Part shown: positions 4,916 through 61,464 of the stretch, in pieces | Position numbering within the stretch: position 1 is the stretch's first letter | Layout of the letters: every line of letters begins with the position of its first letter | The notes under the pieces: generated by a model | Told to the model about the DNA's origin: nothing | What the model saw: only the letters and a program-made list of their open reading frames with translations | The model's database searches: none | Made by a program: the position numbers and the translations under genes | DNA from: a virus | Strand: one strand, 5' to 3' | DNA: 64,000 nt | IMG/VR virus record: IMGVR_UViG_3300045988_109366 | Location: 32,001-96,000 of that record

Positions 4916-5965
4916 ATGGCATATACATATATAAACAGGGAAATATATCCCAATATGTTGGTTTTAGACGAACCTCTTGATGATAATTACGCTAAGGGTA
5001 ATAGTTATGATGATTATATTAATGGCAATCCGATTCCATGGATAGAGCTGAGACAAGAACAACTTTCGTTCAAGGAAGCTAATCCTAAAGCCACGGTTAA
5101 GGAGATCATTGAGGCTAGATTAGATGAGTCAAGGGTTCTTAACGAGGAGAAATCGGCTAAATATGAGGAGCTGAGATCTTATGAGACTGAAAATCTCCAT
5201 GAGTTTTTCTTGGATGATCAAGATATTTATATTCCTGAATATGACAGACGTAGCGCTTTGGCTGATGGGGCTATAGTCGGTAAGATAACGATTATGGGTC
5301 TGGAGTTCGATATGACGGAAGGCAAGATCTTGATCGGGATGATGGATAAGTACGATAACGATCTGACAACGGCGTTAGGGGACAAGCAAAAGCAGATCAG
5401 TATAGCCACTACCGTAGAACAGGTGAGAGCTGTCGATGTTCAGTCCGGCTATCCTGATAAGGTAAGTGTTACCACGGCGTACATCCAGCAGCAGGCGAAG
5501 GAGAAGGATGCTCTCGATCCTCAAAAAGTAGCTGTCGAGTTTTCTAGGATGTTGGTTAATGACAAATCTTTATCCTTATCATCCAACGAGAAATTGGATG
5601 TTAAGGTCCTATTTCCTATATGGGGACAAGAAGGAGCGGAGTTCGGGCTATCCGTGGATACCGGATTTTGTCTTAGGGTAGTTAAGGAGGATACGGATAT
5701 CCTTTACGAGGTTATCCAGCCTCATACGTTATCGTCAGAATGGGAGCCTGGACTCAGTACGGCCTCCTTATATAAGGTTGTTGACAAGGAGCATGCCGGG
5801 ACTATAGGTGATCCTATCCCTTATTTCCCTCCTATGGAGATATTTAAGGATAAATATTACATTCAGAACGCTGACGTGTATAAATGCACAAGGGATAGTG
5901 GAACTCCTCTTAGTCATAATTTAAAGGACTTAGTAGGGTTGTATGTTGAGGTTGTACAGGGCTAG
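4916..5965 (+). CDS. hypothetical protein downstream of tail fibre (possible fibre-associated protein)
   Basis: 349-codon ORF, 10 nt after the fibre gene. No diagnostic motif. Confidence 0.55.
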   Translation: MAYTYINREIYPNMLVLDEPLDDNYAKGNSYDDYINGNPIPWIELRQEQLSFKEANPKATVKEIIEARLDESRVLNEEKSAKYEELRSYETENLHEFFLDDQDIYIPEYDRRSALADGAIVGKITIMGLEFDMTEGKILIGMMDKYDNDLTTALGDKQKQISIATTVEQVRAVDVQSGYPDKVSVTTAYIQQQAKEKDALDPQKVAVEFSRMLVNDKSLSLSSNEKLDVKVLFPIWGQEGAEFGLSVDTGFCLRVVKEDTDILYEVIQPHTLSSEWEPGLSTASLYKVVDKEHAGTIGDPIPYFPPMEIFKDKYYIQNADVYKCTRDSGTPLSHNLKDLVGLYVEVVQG

Positions 5966-6052
5966 TCGTATCTACCCCCCCCTATATTTGGCTTGTGATA
6001 TGATATGAGTTATTTTTGGCATAATAAAATGACATTTATAAATAAATAGATT

Positions 6053-6712
6053 ATGGCTTCACGAAAATTTGGTTTCGTAATCGTCGACCCGGTATCAGGA
6101 TCAGGAGATCAGGCGGTTAATATCTCCGGTGAGAAACACACCGGTCGTCTTCAACGCACTATCAACCTTACGGTCACCACGAACGGCGGGGCTAAGAAGG
6201 CGTTGGTAGTTAATCAGGCAGCGGCTGCTGAGGTGGTAAGATCAGACAGCCCTAACGCTTCCGTACAAAAGACAGGTGGTAATGTTACCATCACCGGTAA
6301 GTCTAACAGTACTAAGCTTACATTTTCGGTCACGTCGGCTGAGGAGAACGGGCTTACGTTACAGCTCCCGGCTAACTACACGGCGGCTGGAAAGACTACG
6401 GCTAACGGAGCGGTTATCGCCGACGACCCCGGAGCCGCTGGCGAGTTCGTTTGGAGCATCACGATCTCGGACGTACCGGCCAACGTCACGATCGAGGAAC
6501 TGACAGCTACATTGAAGGTAACTGCCGCTGGTGGCCAGATAGCCAACGTGACGGTAACGCAAGCCGCTGGAAACTCTACTATCGAGCTTGACAAGGAGAC
6601 TATTAACTTGGATGTAAATGGTACTCAACAGACGGTTAACGTAACATCTAACGACAGCTGGACTTGGGCGCAAGCAGCCGCCAGAACCGTATTGAGAATG
6701 ATGGGACGATAA
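6053..6712 (+). CDS. BACON/Ig-like repeat surface protein
   Basis: Two beta-rich repeats ending ...GAKKALVVNQAA and ...ANVTVTQAAG. The pattern is typical of BACON-type Ig-like domains. Confidence 0.5.
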   Translation: MASRKFGFVIVDPVSGSGDQAVNISGEKHTGRLQRTINLTVTTNGGAKKALVVNQAAAAEVVRSDSPNASVQKTGGNVTITGKSNSTKLTFSVTSAEENGLTLQLPANYTAAGKTTANGAVIADDPGAAGEFVWSITISDVPANVTIEELTATLKVTAAGGQIANVTVTQAAGNSTIELDKETINLDVNGTQQTVNVTSNDSWTWAQAAARTVLRMMGR

Positions 6713-20585: not shown

Positions 20586-21329
20586 TTGTAAATTTCATAG
20601 AAAATCATAGAAATAATTAAGATATTCTACTCCATTTTAGACGCTTCAACACAACTGGCAACCCGGCTGCTCTGCGTCCGTATAGCCGCATCAACTCCTA
20701 CGGCTTGTATGTTTATCGCGGCGTTGAGATCCCTGTCGATCTCCATGCCGCAATCTTTGCAGACAAATGTTCGATCCGATAATTTCAGATCTTTATTCTT
20801 CCAGCCACATCTTGAACAGGTTTTCGAGGATGGGTAAAAACGATCTATAACAATCAGTTCTTTACTATACCACCTACACTTGTATTCAAGTTGGTTACGG
20901 AACATCGAGAAAGAAGCATCATATACAGAACCGGCAAGTTTGTGATTCTGTAGCATACCGGAAGCATTTAGATTCTCAATACAGATAACATCGTAATTAT
21001 TTACCAGCATCGTGGTCAAATTATGCATGTACCATGAACGCTTGTTGGCTATATCACGATGAAGTCTTGATACTTTTAGCCTGCATTTGTTTCTTCGATT
21101 ACTTCCTAATTTCTTTCTTGATAAATGCCGTTGCATCCTTTTTAACTTCGCTTGGTTCTCACAAAGAAAATGGGGATTCTCAACAGCAATCCCATCAGAT
21201 AATGTTTTTGCAAGAAGTTCTTCTTGTGTTTTGTTCGGATACATACGATATTTATATGAACATCTTATTAGACTCATCATCAATTCATTTTAATATATTA
21301 AATATGCAAATAATTCTATGATTTTACAA
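20586..21329 (-). mobile_element. decayed tnpB element bounded by its own inverted repeats
   Basis: TTGTAAA..TCATAGAA at 20586-20612 is the inverse of TTCTATGATTTTACAA at 21314-21329. The pair encloses the truncated tnpB. Confidence 0.45.
20627..21283 (-). CDS. tnpB: TnpB derivative with in-frame internal deletion (REC/WED and RuvC-I missing)
   Basis: N-terminal SYKYRMYPNKTQEELL joins directly to ENPHFL...VICIENLN (RuvC-II), CSRCG..CKDCG (zinc finger) and DRDLNAAINI (RuvC-III). There is no GIDxG RuvC-I motif. 218 aa versus about 370-400 aa for intact TnpB. Confidence 0.7.
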   Translation of the reverse strand: MMMSLIRCSYKYRMYPNKTQEELLAKTLSDGIAVENPHFLCENQAKLKRMQRHLSRKKLGSNRRNKCRLKVSRLHRDIANKRSWYMHNLTTMLVNNYDVICIENLNASGMLQNHKLAGSVYDASFSMFRNQLEYKCRWYSKELIVIDRFYPSSKTCSRCGWKNKDLKLSDRTFVCKDCGMEIDRDLNAAINIQAVGVDAAIRTQSSRVASCVEASKME

Positions 21330-23148: not shown

Positions 23149-23442
23149 TTATTTGTTAAAAGTGTAATATAAATATAAATACATAAATTGAATAGGGCTA
23201 TTCACCATGCCCTTATCAGTAGGATCATCGTATTTGTCAAGCCAAAGACGAAGCGCCTCCCAATCGATATCCTTACGGTCACATACCATGCAGGCTAGGT
23301 TAGCCCCGAACGGCTCCCCGCCGCCGCTCAGCGAGCTATTAAACCTTTTGGCTAGTCTTTCCTTGAATCCCTTATCATACCAAATACCGGAGGTAGCGGC
23401 ATAGCAATAATAAGCGTTGTACTTCAGGTGATTATATACCAA
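23149..23442 (-). CDS. hypothetical protein; tracked TTG start lies inside the tnpB element end
   Basis: 97-codon ORF. The first 5 codons are encoded by the element terminus GGTATATAATCACC. The true start is uncertain. Confidence 0.4.
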   Translation of the reverse strand: MVYNHLKYNAYYCYAATSGIWYDKGFKERLAKRFNSSLSGGGEPFGANLACMVCDRKDIDWEALRLWLDKYDDPTDKGMVNSPIQFMYLYLYYTFNK

Positions 23443-23530
23443 TTTAAACCAGTATAATTTGACGCTTCACAGCCCCGGCCATCGCCGGTGACTCCACATC
23501 CCCTACCCGGTCCACCACCGGTGACGTATT
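23427..23530 (-). ncRNA. candidate omega-RNA (reRNA) scaffold of element B
   Basis: GC-rich hairpin-forming stretch (CCGG-TGGTGGA-CCGG, CCGG-CGATGG-CCGG) between the tnpB stop and the element end. The position matches where TnpB guide RNAs are encoded. Its 5' limit probably lies inside the ORF. Confidence 0.4.
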
Positions 23531-24646
23531 TTATTGGGTTAGAAGATTCTGTTTTTCTAACCCAAATTTCTTTATGTTCCTAGCGGCAAGAAGATCCCTA
23601 TCATTTACGGCTCCACAAGAAGGGCAAGTCCAGATACGATCGGATAATTTAAGATCCCGATGTATGTACCCACATCCGCACATCTTGGAGCTAGGTTCGA
23701 ATCTACCAACCCGAATCAAATTCACGCCCTTCCAATCCGACTTATAGCTTAATATTCTAAAGAACTCGCTCCATGAGCATGAAGCTATGCTATTAGCCAG
23801 CTTATGGTTCTTCATCATCCCCTCCACGTTAAGATCCTCAATAACCACGGTTTGGTTCTCGCCTAGGATATTGTTGACCACATGGTGCAGGAAGTTATGT
23901 CTTTGATTTGATATACGCTCGTATGCCTTAGCTACAGCTAATCTGGCTCTTTCTCTTCTTCGGCTTCCTTTTTGTTTGCGAGTTAATCTACGTTGTAAGC
24001 ATCTTAACCGTGCGGAAGACCTTTCAAGATATTTCGGGTTCTCGAAAATCGAACCGTTCGATAAGGTTGCGAATGTCTTTATCCCGACATCGATACCTAC
24101 AGCGGTATCCGGATTTATAGGAGACTTGTCCGGCAATTTGAGGCCGTTATCTACAAGGATACTGATATAGTACTTATTTGTAGGTGATTTAGATACAGTG
24201 ACAGTCCCTATTTTACCTTTAAACACTTGGTTTGAGTAGAATCTTATCCATCCTAATTTCGGTAACTTAATCCTGTTGTTATCGAAATCAATATGAACAT
24301 TGAGGATATTCTTGAACGATCTCCTTGATCCTCGCTTTGACTTGAATTTTGGGAAGCCTTTCTTTTCCCTAAAAAATCTGGTGAAAGCCTGATCAAGATT
24401 CCTTATTGACTGTTGCAGACATTCGTTAGACACCTCATTAAGCCAAGTATATTCCTCTTGTTTCTTCAAATCAGTCAGTTTCTTGCATAGATCAACAGCC
24501 GTAAGTGATTTTTTATCATCTTGATACGCTTCGATTTTTGTCTGCAAAGCCCAGTTATAGATAAATCGTGTTGATCCGAAAGTCCTCTCTATTAGAGAGA
24601 TCTGTTCGGATGTCGGATTTAGTCTATATTTATAAGCTTTTAGCAT
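23531..24646 (-). CDS. tnpB: TnpB RNA-guided endonuclease (IS200/IS605-type OrfB), apparently intact
   Basis: N-terminal MLKAYKYRLNPT. RuvC-I VGIDVGIKT, RuvC-II VVIEDLNVEGM, zinc finger CGCG..CPSCG, RuvC-III NDRDLLAARNI. Start set at M43 of the tracked ORF. Confidence 0.9.
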   Translation of the reverse strand: MLKAYKYRLNPTSEQISLIERTFGSTRFIYNWALQTKIEAYQDDKKSLTAVDLCKKLTDLKKQEEYTWLNEVSNECLQQSIRNLDQAFTRFFREKKGFPKFKSKRGSRRSFKNILNVHIDFDNNRIKLPKLGWIRFYSNQVFKGKIGTVTVSKSPTNKYYISILVDNGLKLPDKSPINPDTAVGIDVGIKTFATLSNGSIFENPKYLERSSARLRCLQRRLTRKQKGSRRRERARLAVAKAYERISNQRHNFLHHVVNNILGENQTVVIEDLNVEGMMKNHKLANSIASCSWSEFFRILSYKSDWKGVNLIRVGRFEPSSKMCGCGYIHRDLKLSDRIWTCPSCGAVNDRDLLAARNIKKFGLEKQNLLTQ

Positions 24647-24680
24647 ACTACTGTCTTTTGATACAAAGATGTGATATAAA

Positions 24681-24746
24681 AAGTAATTATATACGATTTT
24701 ACTTATGTCATACAACATAATAGTGTAAAGATGTATATAATTACTT
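24681..24746. repeat. 14-bp perfect inverted repeat (hairpin) at the left end of element B
   Basis: AAGTAATTATATAC at 24681-24694 and GTATATAATTACTT at 24733-24746, with a 38-nt spacer. Confidence 0.8.
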
Positions 24747-31547: not shown

Positions 31548-32246
31548 CTAAATCGACATTTTCAATCTTCTACCTAATTCTTTTTTTATATCCGATATCC
31601 TTTCGATATCCATCTTAACATCGCCTGTGATAGCGTATTCCTTATCCATTCTCTTTGGGGGATCCGGAAGCCGGCTTATGGCGAACAACCATGCCAGCTC
31701 CTTGTTCTTGTTCTCCCTAAGATACAAGTCAGACGTCATGCCATACATTTTTATGATCGTATCGAATAACGTTGATTCCGATAAACTCATATGCACGCTA
31801 TACACATTTGATGGTTTCCAGATCAAGTTATCCAATCTCATCGTATACTCACGTTTAAGATCTATGTGGGATATTACGGCCCTTACTATAGGTTCTTCCT
31901 TGAAGTTGGTGTTAGCCACAAACCAGATAAGCCTTTTTTCCACCTCCTTGATAGCTCCTGTATCCTTACCCGTATCGTTATATACCCCAACGATACGGTC
32001 CCGGATCCCCTCGACCTCCGGTGTCAGACCGGGTGTCTCTATCAGCATCAGCAGCGATCCTCCCCTTGGCGTTATCTTCCACTTCCCATTCTTCTGAAGC
32101 TCAATATAACCAGATGCTTTATAACTATCTATTTTCTCCTTTGGAATGGTGTTAGCCATCTCTTCTTTTTGCCGGATCATCAAAAGATATCCAACATCAG
32201 ACATCGTTAATCCTGATGTCATCATCTGTTCAAAATTTATATACAT
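31548..32246 (-). CDS. hypothetical protein
   Basis: 232-codon ORF in the replication module. Confidence 0.6.
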   Translation of the reverse strand: MYINFEQMMTSGLTMSDVGYLLMIRQKEEMANTIPKEKIDSYKASGYIELQKNGKWKITPRGGSLLMLIETPGLTPEVEGIRDRIVGVYNDTGKDTGAIKEVEKRLIWFVANTNFKEEPIVRAVISHIDLKREYTMRLDNLIWKPSNVYSVHMSLSESTLFDTIIKMYGMTSDLYLRENKNKELAWLFAISRLPDPPKRMDKEYAITGDVKMDIERISDIKKELGRRLKMSI

Positions 32247-35772: not shown

Positions 35773-36712
35773 TGTAAATTTGTTTAATAATAAAATAATC
35801 CGCTATATCCATTCCCTCATTTATATTGGGTTTTGATTCTAGAAAATTACTTATCTCTATATTCATCCCCCTCATATCCTTGTCTACCTTCTTTCTCCAT
35901 TCGTTGAAAGCGTCGCCTTTATCAGGGTACAGGACTATCCGCCTCCTACCCAATGTCTCTATCATCTCCCTCTTCAACATATGGATACCGCCACAGGCCA
36001 TAAACAACCTACTAGGGTACACAATATTGCAGATAACAGCCGTCTTCTCTGACTCTACTATATACACCGGAGCGTCATTGGGATAGAAGTTGATAAGAAA
36101 CTCCCCGAACAGGCATTGCCTAAGCAGGTAATCCTGACCGTCCAGTATATGCACCCAACATACATGATCCATGGGAACCTTTACCCTCTTCCCGTCAGGC
36201 CCGTAGTCCATTATCTTCCCGGTCCGCACTACCCAATTCTTATCCAGTTGCCAGAACACACAGCACTTACCCCAGTCCCCTAATCTCATCATCCCCACCT
36301 TATACAAGCTAAATGCCCTATTGGTATGATACGACCCGAAGATATTGGATAGATAATCCTGAAGATCGGATGTCTCGAAAGGATTAAGCGTCTCAAACAT
36401 CTTGCTTACCGGAATGCAGTTGGCTATATCCGGATCCATAGGAGGTCTGTACCTCCTTAATACTTTGTTTGAATCGGTAAAAAGATCATTGTTCCCAAGT
36501 TCGCTCCCTGTTGGATATTTAAAGTAACCACATTTATTTTTATGATCACACATCCCAAACTGCTCTCCAACGATCTGACCGGTGGTTACGTCCACGTACG
36601 GCGTAAAACACTTATCCTTGCCGCATTGCGGGCACGTCAGCTTCCTTCTTGGCTTGCTATGATCCAGCTCATACCGATGAACGCTCTTATTGAACTCCCT
36701 AAATTCCATCAT
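35756..36712 (-). CDS. DNA primase (zinc-binding plus Toprim)
   Basis: CPQCGK..C zinc motif. Toprim E in VESEKTA and DxD-like YPDKGD. Confidence 0.65.
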   Translation of the reverse strand: MMEFREFNKSVHRYELDHSKPRRKLTCPQCGKDKCFTPYVDVTTGQIVGEQFGMCDHKNKCGYFKYPTGSELGNNDLFTDSNKVLRRYRPPMDPDIANCIPVSKMFETLNPFETSDLQDYLSNIFGSYHTNRAFSLYKVGMMRLGDWGKCCVFWQLDKNWVVRTGKIMDYGPDGKRVKVPMDHVCWVHILDGQDYLLRQCLFGEFLINFYPNDAPVYIVESEKTAVICNIVYPSRLFMACGGIHMLKREMIETLGRRRIVLYPDKGDAFNEWRKKVDKDMRGMNIEISNFLESKPNINEGMDIADYFIIKQIYNGKGS

Positions 36713-40907: not shown

Positions 40908-41069
40908 GACATTTTGTTTTTGAATTAAATTAAATAAACATTATTAATAGTTAATACCATCCTTTCTTCTATCATTCATATTTATTCTTTTAAGTAATTA
41001 TATACAACCTTACACTACAAACATACTGAATTATTTTTATATATAAATAATAATCCATATATTCGTGCC

Positions 41070-42293
41070 ATGAGGCTAGTTGAACAACATATAATCAAGC
41101 AAAGCTCAATATATTACAATGAGATTCAAGATCTGTTGCATAAGTGCAAAAACTTATACAACAAAGGATTGTATGTTGTTAGACAACATTACTTTCAATA
41201 TAAGAATGATAATACCGTTAAGTATAAATACCTCAACTACTACCCTCTTGAAAAGAAGTTAAGAACAGAAGATGACGTTGACTATCGTGCTTTACCGTCA
41301 CCGGTAGCCCAACAGGTATTGATAATGGTCGACCAGAATTTCAAGTCCTTCTTCAATCTTCTTAATAAGAAAGGTAGAGGTGAATATTCTGAGAAAGTAA
41401 GAATACCTAAGTATCTTGATAAAGATGGGATGTTTATGGCTGTTTTCCCAACAACAGCCTTTTCTCAAAAATGGATAAAGCAAGGTATTATTAAGTTGCC
41501 AAAGCAATTCTCTTTCACCACGAGAACTAACAAGCAAAATATCCAACAACTCAGGTTCGTCCCTAAGAATGGATATATTATACTTGAAATCGTATATAAC
41601 AAGAAAGAGAAAGATCTTATATATGATAACGGTAATTACCTTGGTATTGATCTTGGACTTAACAATTTAGCATCTTGTGTATCAAATACCGGTTCCTGCT
41701 TTATCATCAACGGTAAGCCTCTAAAATCTATCAACCAGTATTATAATAAAAGATTAGCATATTTAAAATCTAAATTAAAAGACAATAAACAAGTCTCAAA
41801 GCAAATAAGGTCGTTAACCAACAAAAGGAATAACAAGATCAAGGATTATCTGCATAAAGCCAGTAGGGTATTGATTAATCATGTAGTCTCCAATGGCATT
41901 AATACGATCATAATCGGTCATAATAGATGTTGGAAACAAGAGATCAATATCGGAAAGCGGAATAATCAGAACTTTGTTTCTATTCCTTTTAATATGTTTA
42001 TCTCAATGATATCATATAAGGCTACACTTGAGGGAATCAATGTTAAGATCGTTGAGGAATCCTATACCTCAAAATGTAGTTTCTTGGATAACGAGCAGAT
42101 TCGTAAGCATGAGGAATATGTCGGAAGACGTATCAAACGAGGATTATTCAAGACATCTTCCGGCAATATTATTAACGCCGATATCAACGCTGCATTTAAC
42201 ATCATTAGAAAATCGGCAAAAGAAGCCTTCGATGTAAGTATCTTGCCAGAAGGTAGAGGGTTTTGGTGGAACCCGATACGGATTTCCGTATAG
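41070..42293 (+). CDS. tnpB: TnpB-family RNA-guided endonuclease, zinc-finger-less clade
   Basis: VEQHIIK...LYNKGLYVVRQ N-terminus. RuvC-I YLGIDLGLNN, IIIGHNRCWKQE, EESYTSKCSFLD, RuvC-III NADINAAFNIIRK. Confidence 0.85.
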   Translation: MRLVEQHIIKQSSIYYNEIQDLLHKCKNLYNKGLYVVRQHYFQYKNDNTVKYKYLNYYPLEKKLRTEDDVDYRALPSPVAQQVLIMVDQNFKSFFNLLNKKGRGEYSEKVRIPKYLDKDGMFMAVFPTTAFSQKWIKQGIIKLPKQFSFTTRTNKQNIQQLRFVPKNGYIILEIVYNKKEKDLIYDNGNYLGIDLGLNNLASCVSNTGSCFIINGKPLKSINQYYNKRLAYLKSKLKDNKQVSKQIRSLTNKRNNKIKDYLHKASRVLINHVVSNGINTIIIGHNRCWKQEINIGKRNNQNFVSIPFNMFISMISYKATLEGINVKIVEESYTSKCSFLDNEQIRKHEEYVGRRIKRGLFKTSSGNIINADINAAFNIIRKSAKEAFDVSILPEGRGFWWNPIRISV

Positions 42294-42339
42294 ATATATA
42301 TCATTTTACGATTTTAGTGTAAAATGGTATATAATCACC
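42252..42339 (+). ncRNA. candidate omega-RNA 3' scaffold of element A
   Basis: Overlaps the tnpB 3' end. Hairpins at 42258-42274 and 42276-42291 are conserved with compensatory changes in the copy at 45948-46037. Confidence 0.5.
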
Positions 42340-42753
42340 TACCCCAACATCTGCTCCATCTTCTTTAATCCAATTATCCGTATCGCAATGCCAACAATAT
42401 CCTGTTTTGGAATCCTCTTTATGAGAATGAGACCCACAAGTAGCGCACCAATAATTATCATCCGTATCGTATGCGTAGCTTTTATCCTCATGCATCTTAG
42501 CTACTCTGACCATTCTATCTTCTAGCAGTTCTTTTAGATAAGGGCATTCATAAGGTCTATCCTCCTCCCGTAATATCCAAAGCTCGATATCCGTCATCTC
42601 CCCCATCCTGTCCGTGCACATCCGCTCGGCGGCATGACGTACGCTATCTTCCGGCATCCCCGGGACTATCTCCCGGATCACTGCCTCCATCCTCTCTTGG
42701 TATTCGGTGTCTACCTTAGCCACCAAGCCTTCTAATTTATCTATTAAGCTCAT
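42301..42753 (-). CDS. hypothetical Cys-rich protein; last 12 codons encoded by the element A terminus
   Basis: 150-codon ORF. ...GADVGV|GDYIPFYTKIVK*, where the part after the bar is the reverse complement of the element end. Confidence 0.6.
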   Translation of the reverse strand: MSLIDKLEGLVAKVDTEYQERMEAVIREIVPGMPEDSVRHAAERMCTDRMGEMTDIELWILREEDRPYECPYLKELLEDRMVRVAKMHEDKSYAYDTDDNYWCATCGSHSHKEDSKTGYCWHCDTDNWIKEDGADVGVGDYIPFYTKIVK

Positions 42754-45462: not shown

Positions 45463-45702
45463 ATCATTTTAGTTTAATCATTATACTTGTGGAAAATAAA
45501 ATCCGCACATTCTCCGGGGAGTGTTCCTGCGTCATTACAACGGTAGAATCCTTGTGTTTCCAAATCTACATCTACCGGATAACCTTCTGCTGCTTCCAAG
45601 AAGCGTTTGATTTCCTCACATTCTTCATCCGTTAATCCAGTGTAATCATCATTGATTAACGGGCAAGCCCAATAAATCGGGAGCCTGTATCTTATTATCT
45701 CT

Positions 45703-46037
45703 GGCGATTATATACTATTTTACACCAGATATGTTATAAAACATACAGATGTTATTTAATTTCATATTCTTCTTTTCTAACTTTGTTTCACCCAATCGAA
45801 TCACATAGTCCCTTGTTTCGGACAAGACGATTGGGTAAAAGAGGTCTTTGATATAAGGTTTTACCCTAAAAAAATATTCGTTGGGTAAGTAAAATCAAAA
45901 ACGTTTTGTTTAGTAAAAGAATCCGGCGATCTCACTTTTGAGCAACCGGTAGAGGGTATTGGTGATACCCAGTACGGATTTTCGTACAAATGCATATCAT
46001 TTCTCATTTTTTTGGTGTAAAATGGTATATAATCACC
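45703..46037 (+). mobile_element. non-autonomous (MITE-like) derivative of the element A family
   Basis: 24-bp TIRs with 22/24 identity. 8-bp direct repeat TTATCTCT at 45695-45702 and 46038-46045. No ORF inside. The left ~45 nt and right ~130 nt are homologous to element A. Confidence 0.8.
45948..46037 (+). ncRNA. orphan omega-RNA-like module (no adjacent nuclease gene)
   Basis: About 80% identical to 42252-42339. Hairpins at 45954-45970 and 45972-45987 keep their pairing through double substitutions. Confidence 0.45.
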
Positions 46038-46049
46038 TTATCTCTATAT

Positions 46050-46445
46050 TCATAACTTCATCAATTTACAATATGAATCTTCAAATATAGGGATCAAACC
46101 TTGTTCCCTAAAATACGCTGTTGCAACTTTAAAAGCGTACAAAGGGTTCACTTCTTGTATCTTATTCTTTTTTACTCCCTGGGTAATAATTGGATTACAA
46201 CAATAGAATTTTTCATTACCTAAACTTCCAAATACGCTATCTACATTATACTCATAGCAATTAGTACCTCCCAATATCAGCAAATCACATCCAGTCTCTC
46301 TGGTTCCAAGGATAAACGATTTATTCTTATTTGCTGGAAGCATGAATATTTCCTTATCCATATTAAACCAATCATTCTGATTATATTTTACATCCCGGAG
46401 AACGATCTCATCAATCTCATGGGCATATTCTTCTTGTGTTTTCAT
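46050..46445 (-). CDS. hypothetical protein
   Basis: 131-codon ORF. Confidence 0.6.
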   Translation of the reverse strand: MKTQEEYAHEIDEIVLRDVKYNQNDWFNMDKEIFMLPANKNKSFILGTRETGCDLLILGGTNCYEYNVDSVFGSLGNEKFYCCNPIITQGVKKNKIQEVNPLYAFKVATAYFREQGLIPIFEDSYCKLMKL

Positions 46446-61118: not shown

Positions 61119-61194
61119 TGGGGAGTGGGGGAATCGAACCCTTATCCACGCTACGATTAGGAATCGTAAATTCTATCCGTTAAATTAACTCCCC
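61119..61194 (-). tRNA. tRNA-Arg (anticodon CCT)
   Basis: 7-bp acceptor stem GGGGAGT/ACTCCCC. Perfect anticodon stem TACGA/TCGTA with loop TTCCTAA. T-loop TTCGATT. The T-stem is weak (3 GC pairs plus 2 A-C). Confidence 0.6.
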
Positions 61195-61390: not shown

Positions 61391-61464
61391 TGGACCCGGC
61401 CGGGCTTGAACCGACAACCTTCTGGTTATGAGCCAATTGCTCTTACCGATTGAGCTACGGGTCC
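61391..61464 (-). tRNA. tRNA with CAT anticodon (elongator Met, or Ile2 if lysidine-modified)
   Basis: Cloverleaf GGACCCG-TA-GCTC..GAGC-A-ATTGG-CTCATAA-CCAGA-AGGTT-GTCGG-TTCAAGC-CCGGC-CGGGTCC-A. The G1-C72 pair argues against an initiator. Confidence 0.85.

Follow-up and report, generated by a model that had tools for sequence, protein, structure and literature searches.

What moved a 335-bp insertion into a small phage gene, and what does the insertion carry? The question is raised by a 64,000-nt stretch of DNA (hereafter the window) that comprises positions 32,001 to 96,000 of the IMG/VR virus record IMGVR_UViG_3300045988_109366. The insertion, designated E3, has terminal inverted repeats (TIRs) and is flanked by an 8-bp target-site duplication (TSD). 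An earlier sequence-only reading of the window had described both features and had left the mobilising activity unexplained, as a TSD of this length is not expected for IS200/IS605 or IS607 elements. The evidence presented here identifies E3 as a miniature inverted-repeat transposable element (MITE) with the termini of IS1595-family elements, and suggests that its cargo is the guide RNA of a TnpB system whose nuclease is encoded elsewhere in the window.

An insertion with inverted termini splits a small phage gene

The coordinates of E3 and of the other features are collected in Table 1. The inverted termini GGCGATTATATACTATTTTACACC (left end, LE) and GGTGATTATATACCATTTTACACC (right end, RE, given as its reverse complement) agree at 22 of 24 positions, and the octamer TTATCTCT is directly duplicated at both ends of the element. 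In silico excision of positions 45703-46045 restored a 78-codon minus-strand open reading frame (ORF; MNIEIIRYRLPIYW...FIFHKYND), whose ATG overlaps the TGA of the ORF at 46050..46445 (GTTATGAATAT); with E3 in place, the split ORF ends after 6 codons. These observations had all been made in the sequence-only reading and were reproduced. Its statement that no ORF lies inside the element held in substance, but two short minus-strand ORFs (36 and 48 aa) are present. Both are disrupted by indels of 1-6 nt among 65 E3-type copies, which rules out a conserved ORF within the MITE.

The terminus pattern matched the window four times, against 0.00 matches expected from shuffled sequences, and a looser core (ATTATATACnnnnTTwmAC) matched exactly six times against 0.12 expected. 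Such counts are beyond chance. The six core termini pair into three elements, E1, E2 and E3.

A search of relatives for empty sites, which the sequence-only reading had suggested, identified two related phages with an uninterrupted locus and an intact gene of 78-84 aa. In MT837795.1 (about 79-90% identical) the flanks are contiguous and a single octamer is present (TTACCTCT), and in phage csAssE-Sib (OR575929) an annotated 84-aa coding sequence (CDS) is intact at the place equivalent to that of E3. The sequence of the empty site at this locus is ...GTATCTTA followed directly by TTATCTCTATATTCATAACT. The empty sites show that an element did insert, that its TSD is genuine and that a gene was disrupted, in support of the earlier view that a true TIR transposon with an 8-bp TSD has entered a small phage gene. 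A literature search on csAssE-Sib returned nothing relevant. This phage has a MITE copy of its own at another site (135399-135733; locus L003, 2996-3330), the left end of which is degraded and contains the start codon of an annotated AAA-ATPase gene. The CDS annotated as a 'hypothetical protein' within that copy is probably spurious.

The search for more copies yielded at least 87 of the E3 type in viral and metagenome contigs. The 87 copies are 85-98% identical and represent 20 unique flank pairs, 12 of them with a perfect 8-bp TSD. E3 is a MITE: it is short and non-coding, has TIRs and a TSD, exists in many copies and is missing from an empty site in relatives. The possibility that E3 is an assembly artefact or chimera was also considered and rejected as virtually inconceivable. 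No point was found in its favour, and it is contradicted by five independent assemblies that contain the same element at this site, as well as by the roughly 87 copies found elsewhere in IMG/VR, ENA and GenBank records.

The transposition had been described as recent, and this part of the sequence-only reading did not stand. The E3 insertion is shared by five other contigs, whose copies of the element show 94-95% identity. Identity is 94% in the left flank of these occupied sites, and in the right flank it is either 99.6% or ~80%. Divergence of this order among contigs that share the insertion indicates that the insertion is old and polymorphic and that the phage genomes around it are mosaic. 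Over all element types, a perfect TSD was absent from 42 of 60 unique flank pairs. The deficit was largest for tnpB-bearing elements (34/40): the two classes of tnpB element (1.3 kb) had perfect TSDs in only 3/12 and 3/28 flank pairs, compared with the 12/20 of the MITE. Hybrid flank pairs were common among the copies. The hybrid flanks and the low TSD fraction of the tnpB elements are expected from recombination between dispersed copies, and the frequent lack of a perfect TSD indicates a recombination-promoting role of the elements in phage genomes. The MITE and tnpB-1, the gene carried by E2, occur together in this window and in the contigs of L229+L235 and L246+L251.

The termini belong to an IS1595-type lineage

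A terminus scan of IMG/VR returned more than 118 loci, nearly all of them in human-gut phage contigs of 75-160 kb. A transposase gene between the same termini, for which the sequence-only reading had proposed a search, was found in related phages and in Bacteroidales. In one related phage (L101, 2091-6362), E3-type termini surround a 4272-bp segment that contains lipoprotein-like cargo and a 309-aa protein (5161..6090) with a DDE_Tnp_IS1595 domain (ISXO2-like; Pfam E = 2.3e-45). This element adjoins the same phage gene as E2 does in the window, and a second copy of its type was found at L088. Homologues annotated as 'IS1595 family transposase' include those of Parabacteroides faecis (71%), Dysgonomonas and ISSpo3 (57%). 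The 71% homologue resides, in Bacteroidales contigs, in 3.1-3.9-kb elements with the termini GGTAAyTATATACCACTTTACAC, and four Parabacteroides-type copies (L127-L131) each have a perfect 8-bp TSD (ATTTCTTA, ATAATTTT, TTTATTTT and AAGCAAAT). Two further homologues of the transposase were recovered: one, 98% identical, from a Bacteroidales-like chromosomal context, and another, 95% identical but truncated at its N terminus, from a phage contig of 146 kb that is syntenic with the window at 39.4-40.9 kb.

A further 55 autonomous elements of 2.1-6.2 kb were obtained from a scan of 185,579 species genomes and belong to Bacteroidota, Streptococcus and other taxa. They have the common consensus GGnAAyTATATACnnnnTTACACy, to which the LE of E3 conforms, and AT-rich 8-bp TSDs, which all 55 possess because a TSD was a selection criterion of that search. 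An 8-bp TSD is a trait of the IS1595 family (ISfinder), and the trait was confirmed on autonomous copies here.

E3 itself has no transposase, yet elements with the same termini carry DDE_Tnp_IS1595, which makes E3 a non-autonomous member of that family. We consider it very likely that E1, E2 and E3 alike are non-autonomous members of an IS1595-family DDE lineage and are mobilised in trans. A transposase of this family accounts for the 8-bp TSD and provides the mobilising activity that had been missing. The puzzle of the TSD is answered by an IS1595 DDE transposase and not by the usual machinery of tnpB, that of IS200/IS605 or IS607, from whose insertions an 8-bp TSD had correctly been set apart.

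The ends of E3 also bear on whether it could be a non-autonomous element of the IS200/IS605 or IS607 type, that is, a palindrome-associated transposable element (PATE) moved by a Y1 or serine TnpA. Its right end is common to tnpB-carrying elements, and PATEs that bear omegaRNAs are known, as such an origin would require. IS200/IS605 elements, however, have neither TIRs nor a TSD; their ends are asymmetric hairpins, and they insert 3' of a fixed tetra- or pentanucleotide (PMC13565253). E3 has 24-bp TIRs and an 8-bp TSD, the MITE has perfect 8-bp TSDs at 12 independent sites, and the same termini bound DDE_Tnp_IS1595 transposases. Membership of the PATE, IS200/IS605 or IS607 groups was rejected on these grounds, and we regard it as highly improbable.

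The autonomous elements of this IS1595 subgroup (L101, L127-L131 and L132-L211; 2-6 kb) have variable passengers, lipoprotein-like and DUF5640 proteins included, and members of the subgroup occur in Bacteroidota, Streptococcus and other phyla, their terminal consensus being near-constant. A 51-bp palindromic mini-element, composed of a terminus, 7 nt and an inverted terminus, was observed at L101 (6407-6457), at L117 (3637-3687) and in at least 36 related phage contigs. It occupies one conserved intergenic site adjoining the gene next to E2 in the window, and a near-identical hairpin is present in the right end of tnpB-1 elements.

Two unrelated tnpB genes lie between E3-type termini

The sequence-only reading had missed that both tnpB genes of the window have E3-type termini, and also that an RNA module from the 3' end of tnpB-1 is contained in E3. 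TnpB-1 (from E2) and TnpB-2 (from E1) both match the Pfam families OrfB_IS605 and Cas12f1-like_TNB (PF01385, PF07282), and they are barely alignable with each other. TnpB-2 gave a full-length match to the ISDra2 TnpB structures 8H1J/8EXA (E = 5e-78) and has the motifs GIDVG, IEDLN and NDRD. TnpB-1 has the motifs GIDLG and NADINAA, and zinc-finger cysteines are absent from it. Termini of a single type have captured two unrelated tnpB genes.

No TSD was found around the window copies of E1 and E2. Sister copies elsewhere do have 8-bp TSDs (TAAGCTAA at L012 and TACTGTTC at L025 for tnpB-1; TTACAATA at L016 for tnpB-2). A 2-bp TA duplication, as in IS630-like elements, was rejected for E1 and E2 because the flanks are incompatible with it. 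Their missing TSDs are better accounted for by recombination between copies, given the hybrid flank pairs described above. The left ends of E1 and E2 (at 24745 and 40993) start with AG, not with the usual GG, and these two copies may be immobilised and have recombinant flanks. The phage ORF at 42301-42753 (minus strand) terminates within the right end of E2 (C-terminus ...DYIPFYTKIVK, then stop), and the ORF at 23149-23442 (minus strand) begins at a TTG within the right end of E1; the insertions may have remodelled the ends of these adjacent genes.

Two further kinds of tnpB sequence were observed. An internally deleted remnant at 20627-21283 (minus strand), with a 218-aa ORF that is 44% identical to TnpB-2 over the C-terminal half, has no recognisable termini on either side. 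Distant homologues of TnpB-1 (41-47%) in related phages (L017 1785-2966, L057 3988-5169 and L022 6681-7262) have no IS1595-type termini at their 3' ends and may be immobile or otherwise bounded.

E3 has a conserved predicted RNA structure

The inner 20 nt of the RE of E3 differ by one mismatch from the RE of the tnpB-1 element (42316-42339). Over a longer span, the last 90 nt of E3 align at 81% identity with the 88 nt that end E2, a stretch that includes the last 13 codons of tnpB-1, its stop codon and the RE. In E3 this stretch forms part of a predicted structured RNA of roughly 250 nt. RNAalifold analysis of 65 distinct MITE copies gave 91 base pairs, 5 of which had compensatory double changes (for example UA55/CG10 and CG55/UA10 in the hairpin at 45860-45889), and many pairs showed G:U variants that are valid on the plus strand only. 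In an alignment of 3'-terminal 100-nt segments from nine MITEs and nine tnpB-1 elements, three proposed helices were 94.9% paired, with changes on both sides in 4 pairs. The observed paired fraction and covariation score were matched by none of 500 shuffles, and slid controls were 28-60% paired. Shortly before the first conserved hairpin lies TAACTTTG, which fits TAnnTTTG, the consensus of the Bacteroides -7 promoter box; the box is kept at the same offset and on the same strand in 79 of 84 MITE copies. We infer that the plus-strand RNA of the MITE is omegaRNA-like and that its transcription would continue past the right end into flanking DNA. Of a TnpB system, E3 thus appears to have the guide-RNA part alone.

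A highly structured, tnpB-linked insertion within a gene could also be a self-splicing intron or an IStron, a kind of element that does exist, and in that case the host gene would still be functional. This was rejected on three lines of evidence: no Rfam intron family matched even at E <= 10, the strand with the conserved structure runs antisense to the interrupted gene, and the TIRs with the TSD point to DDE transposition. We judge such an origin very improbable.

Insertion sites have an oriented, cargo-specific motif

For the analysis of insertion sites, elements were oriented by tnpB sense and only unique flanks were counted. The base just 5' of the left TSD (-9) was A in 22 of 25 left flanks. 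The first TSD base (+1) was T in 22 of 25 left and 29 of 30 right flanks, and the mirrored positions on the right side had no preference (~40%). By comparison, the 55 autonomous elements have a symmetric preference of ~60% for A before and T after the border at both TSD borders (difference for T at +1, Fisher p = 2e-5).

The triplet directly 5' of the TSD differed between cargo classes. At MITE and tnpB-1 sites it was TTA in 15/24, TAA in 6/24 and AAA in 0/24, whereas at tnpB-2 sites it was AAA in 11/21 and TTA in 0/21 (Fisher p = 4e-6 for TTA and 8e-7 for T at -11). By its site triplet, the MITE groups with tnpB-1, the source of its shared right end. In an empty site the triplet abuts the sequence that follows the RE once the site is occupied, which is the geometry of a transposon-adjacent motif (TAM) and its target. 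The triplet may accordingly be read as a candidate TnpB TAM, TTA for the MITE and tnpB-1 and AAA for tnpB-2. A 16-nt exact match to the start of the putative E3 guide is present at 35851-35866 (plus strand; 0.04 expected at <=3 mismatches). This match is where another small gene (MNIEI...) starts, and the triplet before it is TAC instead of TTA.

Table 1. Positions of E3, its predicted RNA, the gene it splits and the companion tnpB elements within the window.
Feature	Position	Strand	Basis or remark
E3, non-autonomous IS1595-type element (MITE)	45703..46037	+	TIR and TSD; end resembling the tnpB 3' end (RE) at right
Left terminal inverted repeat (LE)	45703..45726	+	22/24 against RE
Right terminal inverted repeat (RE)	46014..46037	-	22/24 against LE
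Left TSD copy	45695..45702		octamer read in the sequence
Right TSD copy	46038..46045		octamer read in the sequence
Split 78-codon phage gene, 3' part	45474..45702	-	weak match to phrog_7225 (unknown function)
Split gene, 5' end	46046..46053	-	ATG at 46051-46053 overlaps the stop of ORF 46050..46445
Structured RNA, omegaRNA-like scaffold (putative function)	45790..46037	+	RNAalifold, covariation, homology to tnpB-1 end
Hairpins of the RNA	45792-45834, 45860-45889, 45954-45970, 45972-45987, 45992-46030	+	RNAalifold
Promoter-like box	45778..45785	+	TAnnTTTG; about 5-8 nt before the first conserved hairpin
Putative guide segment	46038..46057	+	by analogy: omegaRNA guide starts at the right boundary of the transposon (PMC10055086)
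TTA, candidate TnpB-1 TAM	45692..45694	+	directly 5' of the duplicated octamer
E2, 1347 bp, with tnpB-1	40993..42339	+	E3-type termini; tnpB-1 at 41070..42293, 407 aa
E1, 1319 bp, with tnpB-2	23427..24745	-	E3-type termini; tnpB-2 at 23531..24655, 374 aa from the second ATG

The window also contains two tRNA genes on the minus strand, at 61119-61194 and 61391-61464 (Rfam RF00005; 45 and 66 bits).

Proposed mechanism and its alternatives

The results are, in our judgement, probably best explained if E3 is a guide-RNA-only MITE of the IS1595 DDE lineage that is served in trans by both a transposase and a TnpB. The lineage itself resides in human-gut Bacteroidales and in their phages of roughly 75-160 kb. 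An IS1595 transposase, supplied by larger elements with the same termini in phages or hosts, would insert the elements and create the 8-bp TSDs. Transcription would then cross the right end of E3, and the guide would consist of the duplicated octamer and the downstream flank (TTATCTCTATATTCAT...). TnpB-1 made by E2 would pair with the MITE RNA and cleave phage genomes that have an empty site (TTA plus target), and recombinational repair off occupied genomes would copy the element in. The result would be a drive, by homing or retention, among co-infecting phages. The occupied allele would be spared because the target there is preceded by the right end (...AATCACC) instead of TTA. The cargo-specific motif is the chief support for this homing reading.

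The same observations may be approached from the simpler position that E3 is a plain IS1595-type MITE with a functionless RNA, in which the hairpins are parental relics or transposase binding sites and the motif is a preference of the transposase. MITEs are usually deletion derivatives without a function of their own, and a plain MITE would be in that usual condition. It would also suit the base preference at TSD borders, which autonomous elements already have. Such an element does not explain why compensatory changes and G:U-only variants favour one RNA strand, or why the promoter-like box has been kept on that strand in nearly all copies. The site motif, moreover, is one-sided with respect to element orientation, in contrast to the symmetry of the autonomous elements, and it varies by cargo class. 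We therefore regard a plain MITE as rather unlikely.

Several points nevertheless weigh against a guide-only MITE. Rfam searches (gathering thresholds, and E <= 10) gave no family for E3, the output being two tRNAs elsewhere and noise, and no parent of the 5' 220 nt of the MITE was detectable in any tnpB element; both results would be at home with a plain MITE. The parent search covered the two tnpB elements, the fetched loci, 50,697 phage records and the surroundings of the distant tnpB-1 homologues, and it found nothing outside the 90-nt right end. The preference for A before and T after the border is partly the transposase's own, and the transposases of the symmetric background set share no more than 60% identity with that of the phage. 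The tnpB-1 and tnpB-2 classes differ slightly in their termini, so that different transposases, and not TAMs, could underlie the class motifs, as could sampling effects. As to the nuclease, the RuvC-II glutamate of TnpB-1 was located by a weak pairwise alignment only, and a search of the PDB with the TnpB-1 sequence gave no match to any solved structure. Finally, no transposase gene was found within the 64-kb window, for which reason supply in trans is proposed; the transposase-related matches in the window were the tnpB genes only, no scan aimed at Y1 or serine tnpA having been made.

Relation to known systems

Association of TnpB with DDE transposons is, as a general kind, known already. Altae-Tran et al. 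(2023) reported six DDE-associated TnpB branches (DDE-1 to DDE-6) with inverted terminal repeats, in which the 3' end of tnpB is <=250 bp from the transposon end, and solo TnpBs whose ends match those of copies with a transposase, a sign that they are mobilised in trans (PMC10691335). IS630 is the family named in the text of that study. A 2026 review gives ISL2, IS630 and IS1031 as the DDE links and describes the OMEGA-DDE association as relatively low (PMC13565253). IS1595 is unnamed in the main texts of these two papers, and a full-text literature search for IS1595 with TnpB returned no study linking them. E1 and E2 resemble the DDE-associated branches in having tnpB between DDE-transposon inverted repeats, with its 3' end <=250 bp from the end of the element, and in being solo copies with the ends of transposase-bearing ones; they differ in that two unrelated TnpB families occur on one terminus type, the carriers are phages and a guide-only MITE accompanies them.

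E3 has the same termini and AT-rich 8-bp TSD as IS1595 insertion sequences (ISXO2-like; ISSpo3-like subgroup) and the MITEs derived from insertion sequences. IS1595 elements also have passengers between their termini and non-autonomous derivatives mobilised in trans, as is probably the case for E1-E3. Unlike IS1595 elements, E3 lacks a transposase and carries instead an RNA module that it has in common with a tnpB element. Its insertion sites show a one-sided motif, which is missing from those of the autonomous elements.

PATEs often encode omegaRNAs, which are used in trans (Meers et al. 2023; PMC10055086). Like E3, they are protein-less and keep the ends and an omegaRNA-like module; both would need a transposase and TnpB in trans. 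PATEs have no TIRs or TSD, however, and are moved as single strands by Y1 TnpA, whereas E3 is a TIR-bounded member of a DDE family with an 8-bp TSD.

Fanzors in eukaryotic DDE transposons are likewise RNA-guided nucleases of the TnpB family on transposons with TIRs and TSDs (Bao & Jurka 2013, PMC3627910; PMC13565253), and their guide RNA crosses the transposon end, as proposed for E3. In the reported Fanzor structures the 5' TSD lies within the TAM and the 3' TSD within the scaffold, whereas the motif of E3 lies just outside the TSD, which fits the targeting of sites that were never occupied. The setting of E3 is also prokaryotic, and that of a phage. The proposed outcome is the one known from free-standing homing endonucleases of phages (T4 Seg/Mob), namely cutting of an element-free co-infecting genome, recombinational copying and mosaic flanks. 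In contrast to those enzymes, recognition by the E3 system would be RNA-guided and divided between two elements.

What appears to be new is the IS1595 chassis and its use, with termini of a single type, by two TnpB families. The guide-only MITE, bounded by TIRs and a TSD, also appears to be new, as do the occurrence in phages and the cargo-specific motif adjoining the TSD. The system represents a clear prokaryotic, phage-borne case of TnpB and its putative guide RNA on a TIR transposon that makes TSDs, an arrangement that is typical of Fanzors and reported to be rare in prokaryotes. For annotation practice, the results mean that ORFs should not be called within these elements.

Taken together, the findings suggest that these phages host cut-and-paste transposons that have acquired RNA-guided homing modules. 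With one terminus type shared by two TnpBs and a guide-only MITE, the system is a natural test of cooperation between an RNA-guided nuclease and a cut-and-paste transposase, as well as of 'non-restorative homing' between co-infecting phages. More tentatively, and with less confidence than in the reading of E3 itself, the elements may form a two-layer selfish system in gut Bacteroidales phages, in which IS1595 transposition inserts the elements and two TnpB families, with their omegaRNAs and MITEs, drive their spread by cleaving unoccupied sites in co-infecting genomes. If this is true, insertions would persist only beside the right TAM (TTA or AAA) and in the right orientation, and the elements would be portable hot spots of recombination through which phage modules are reshuffled.

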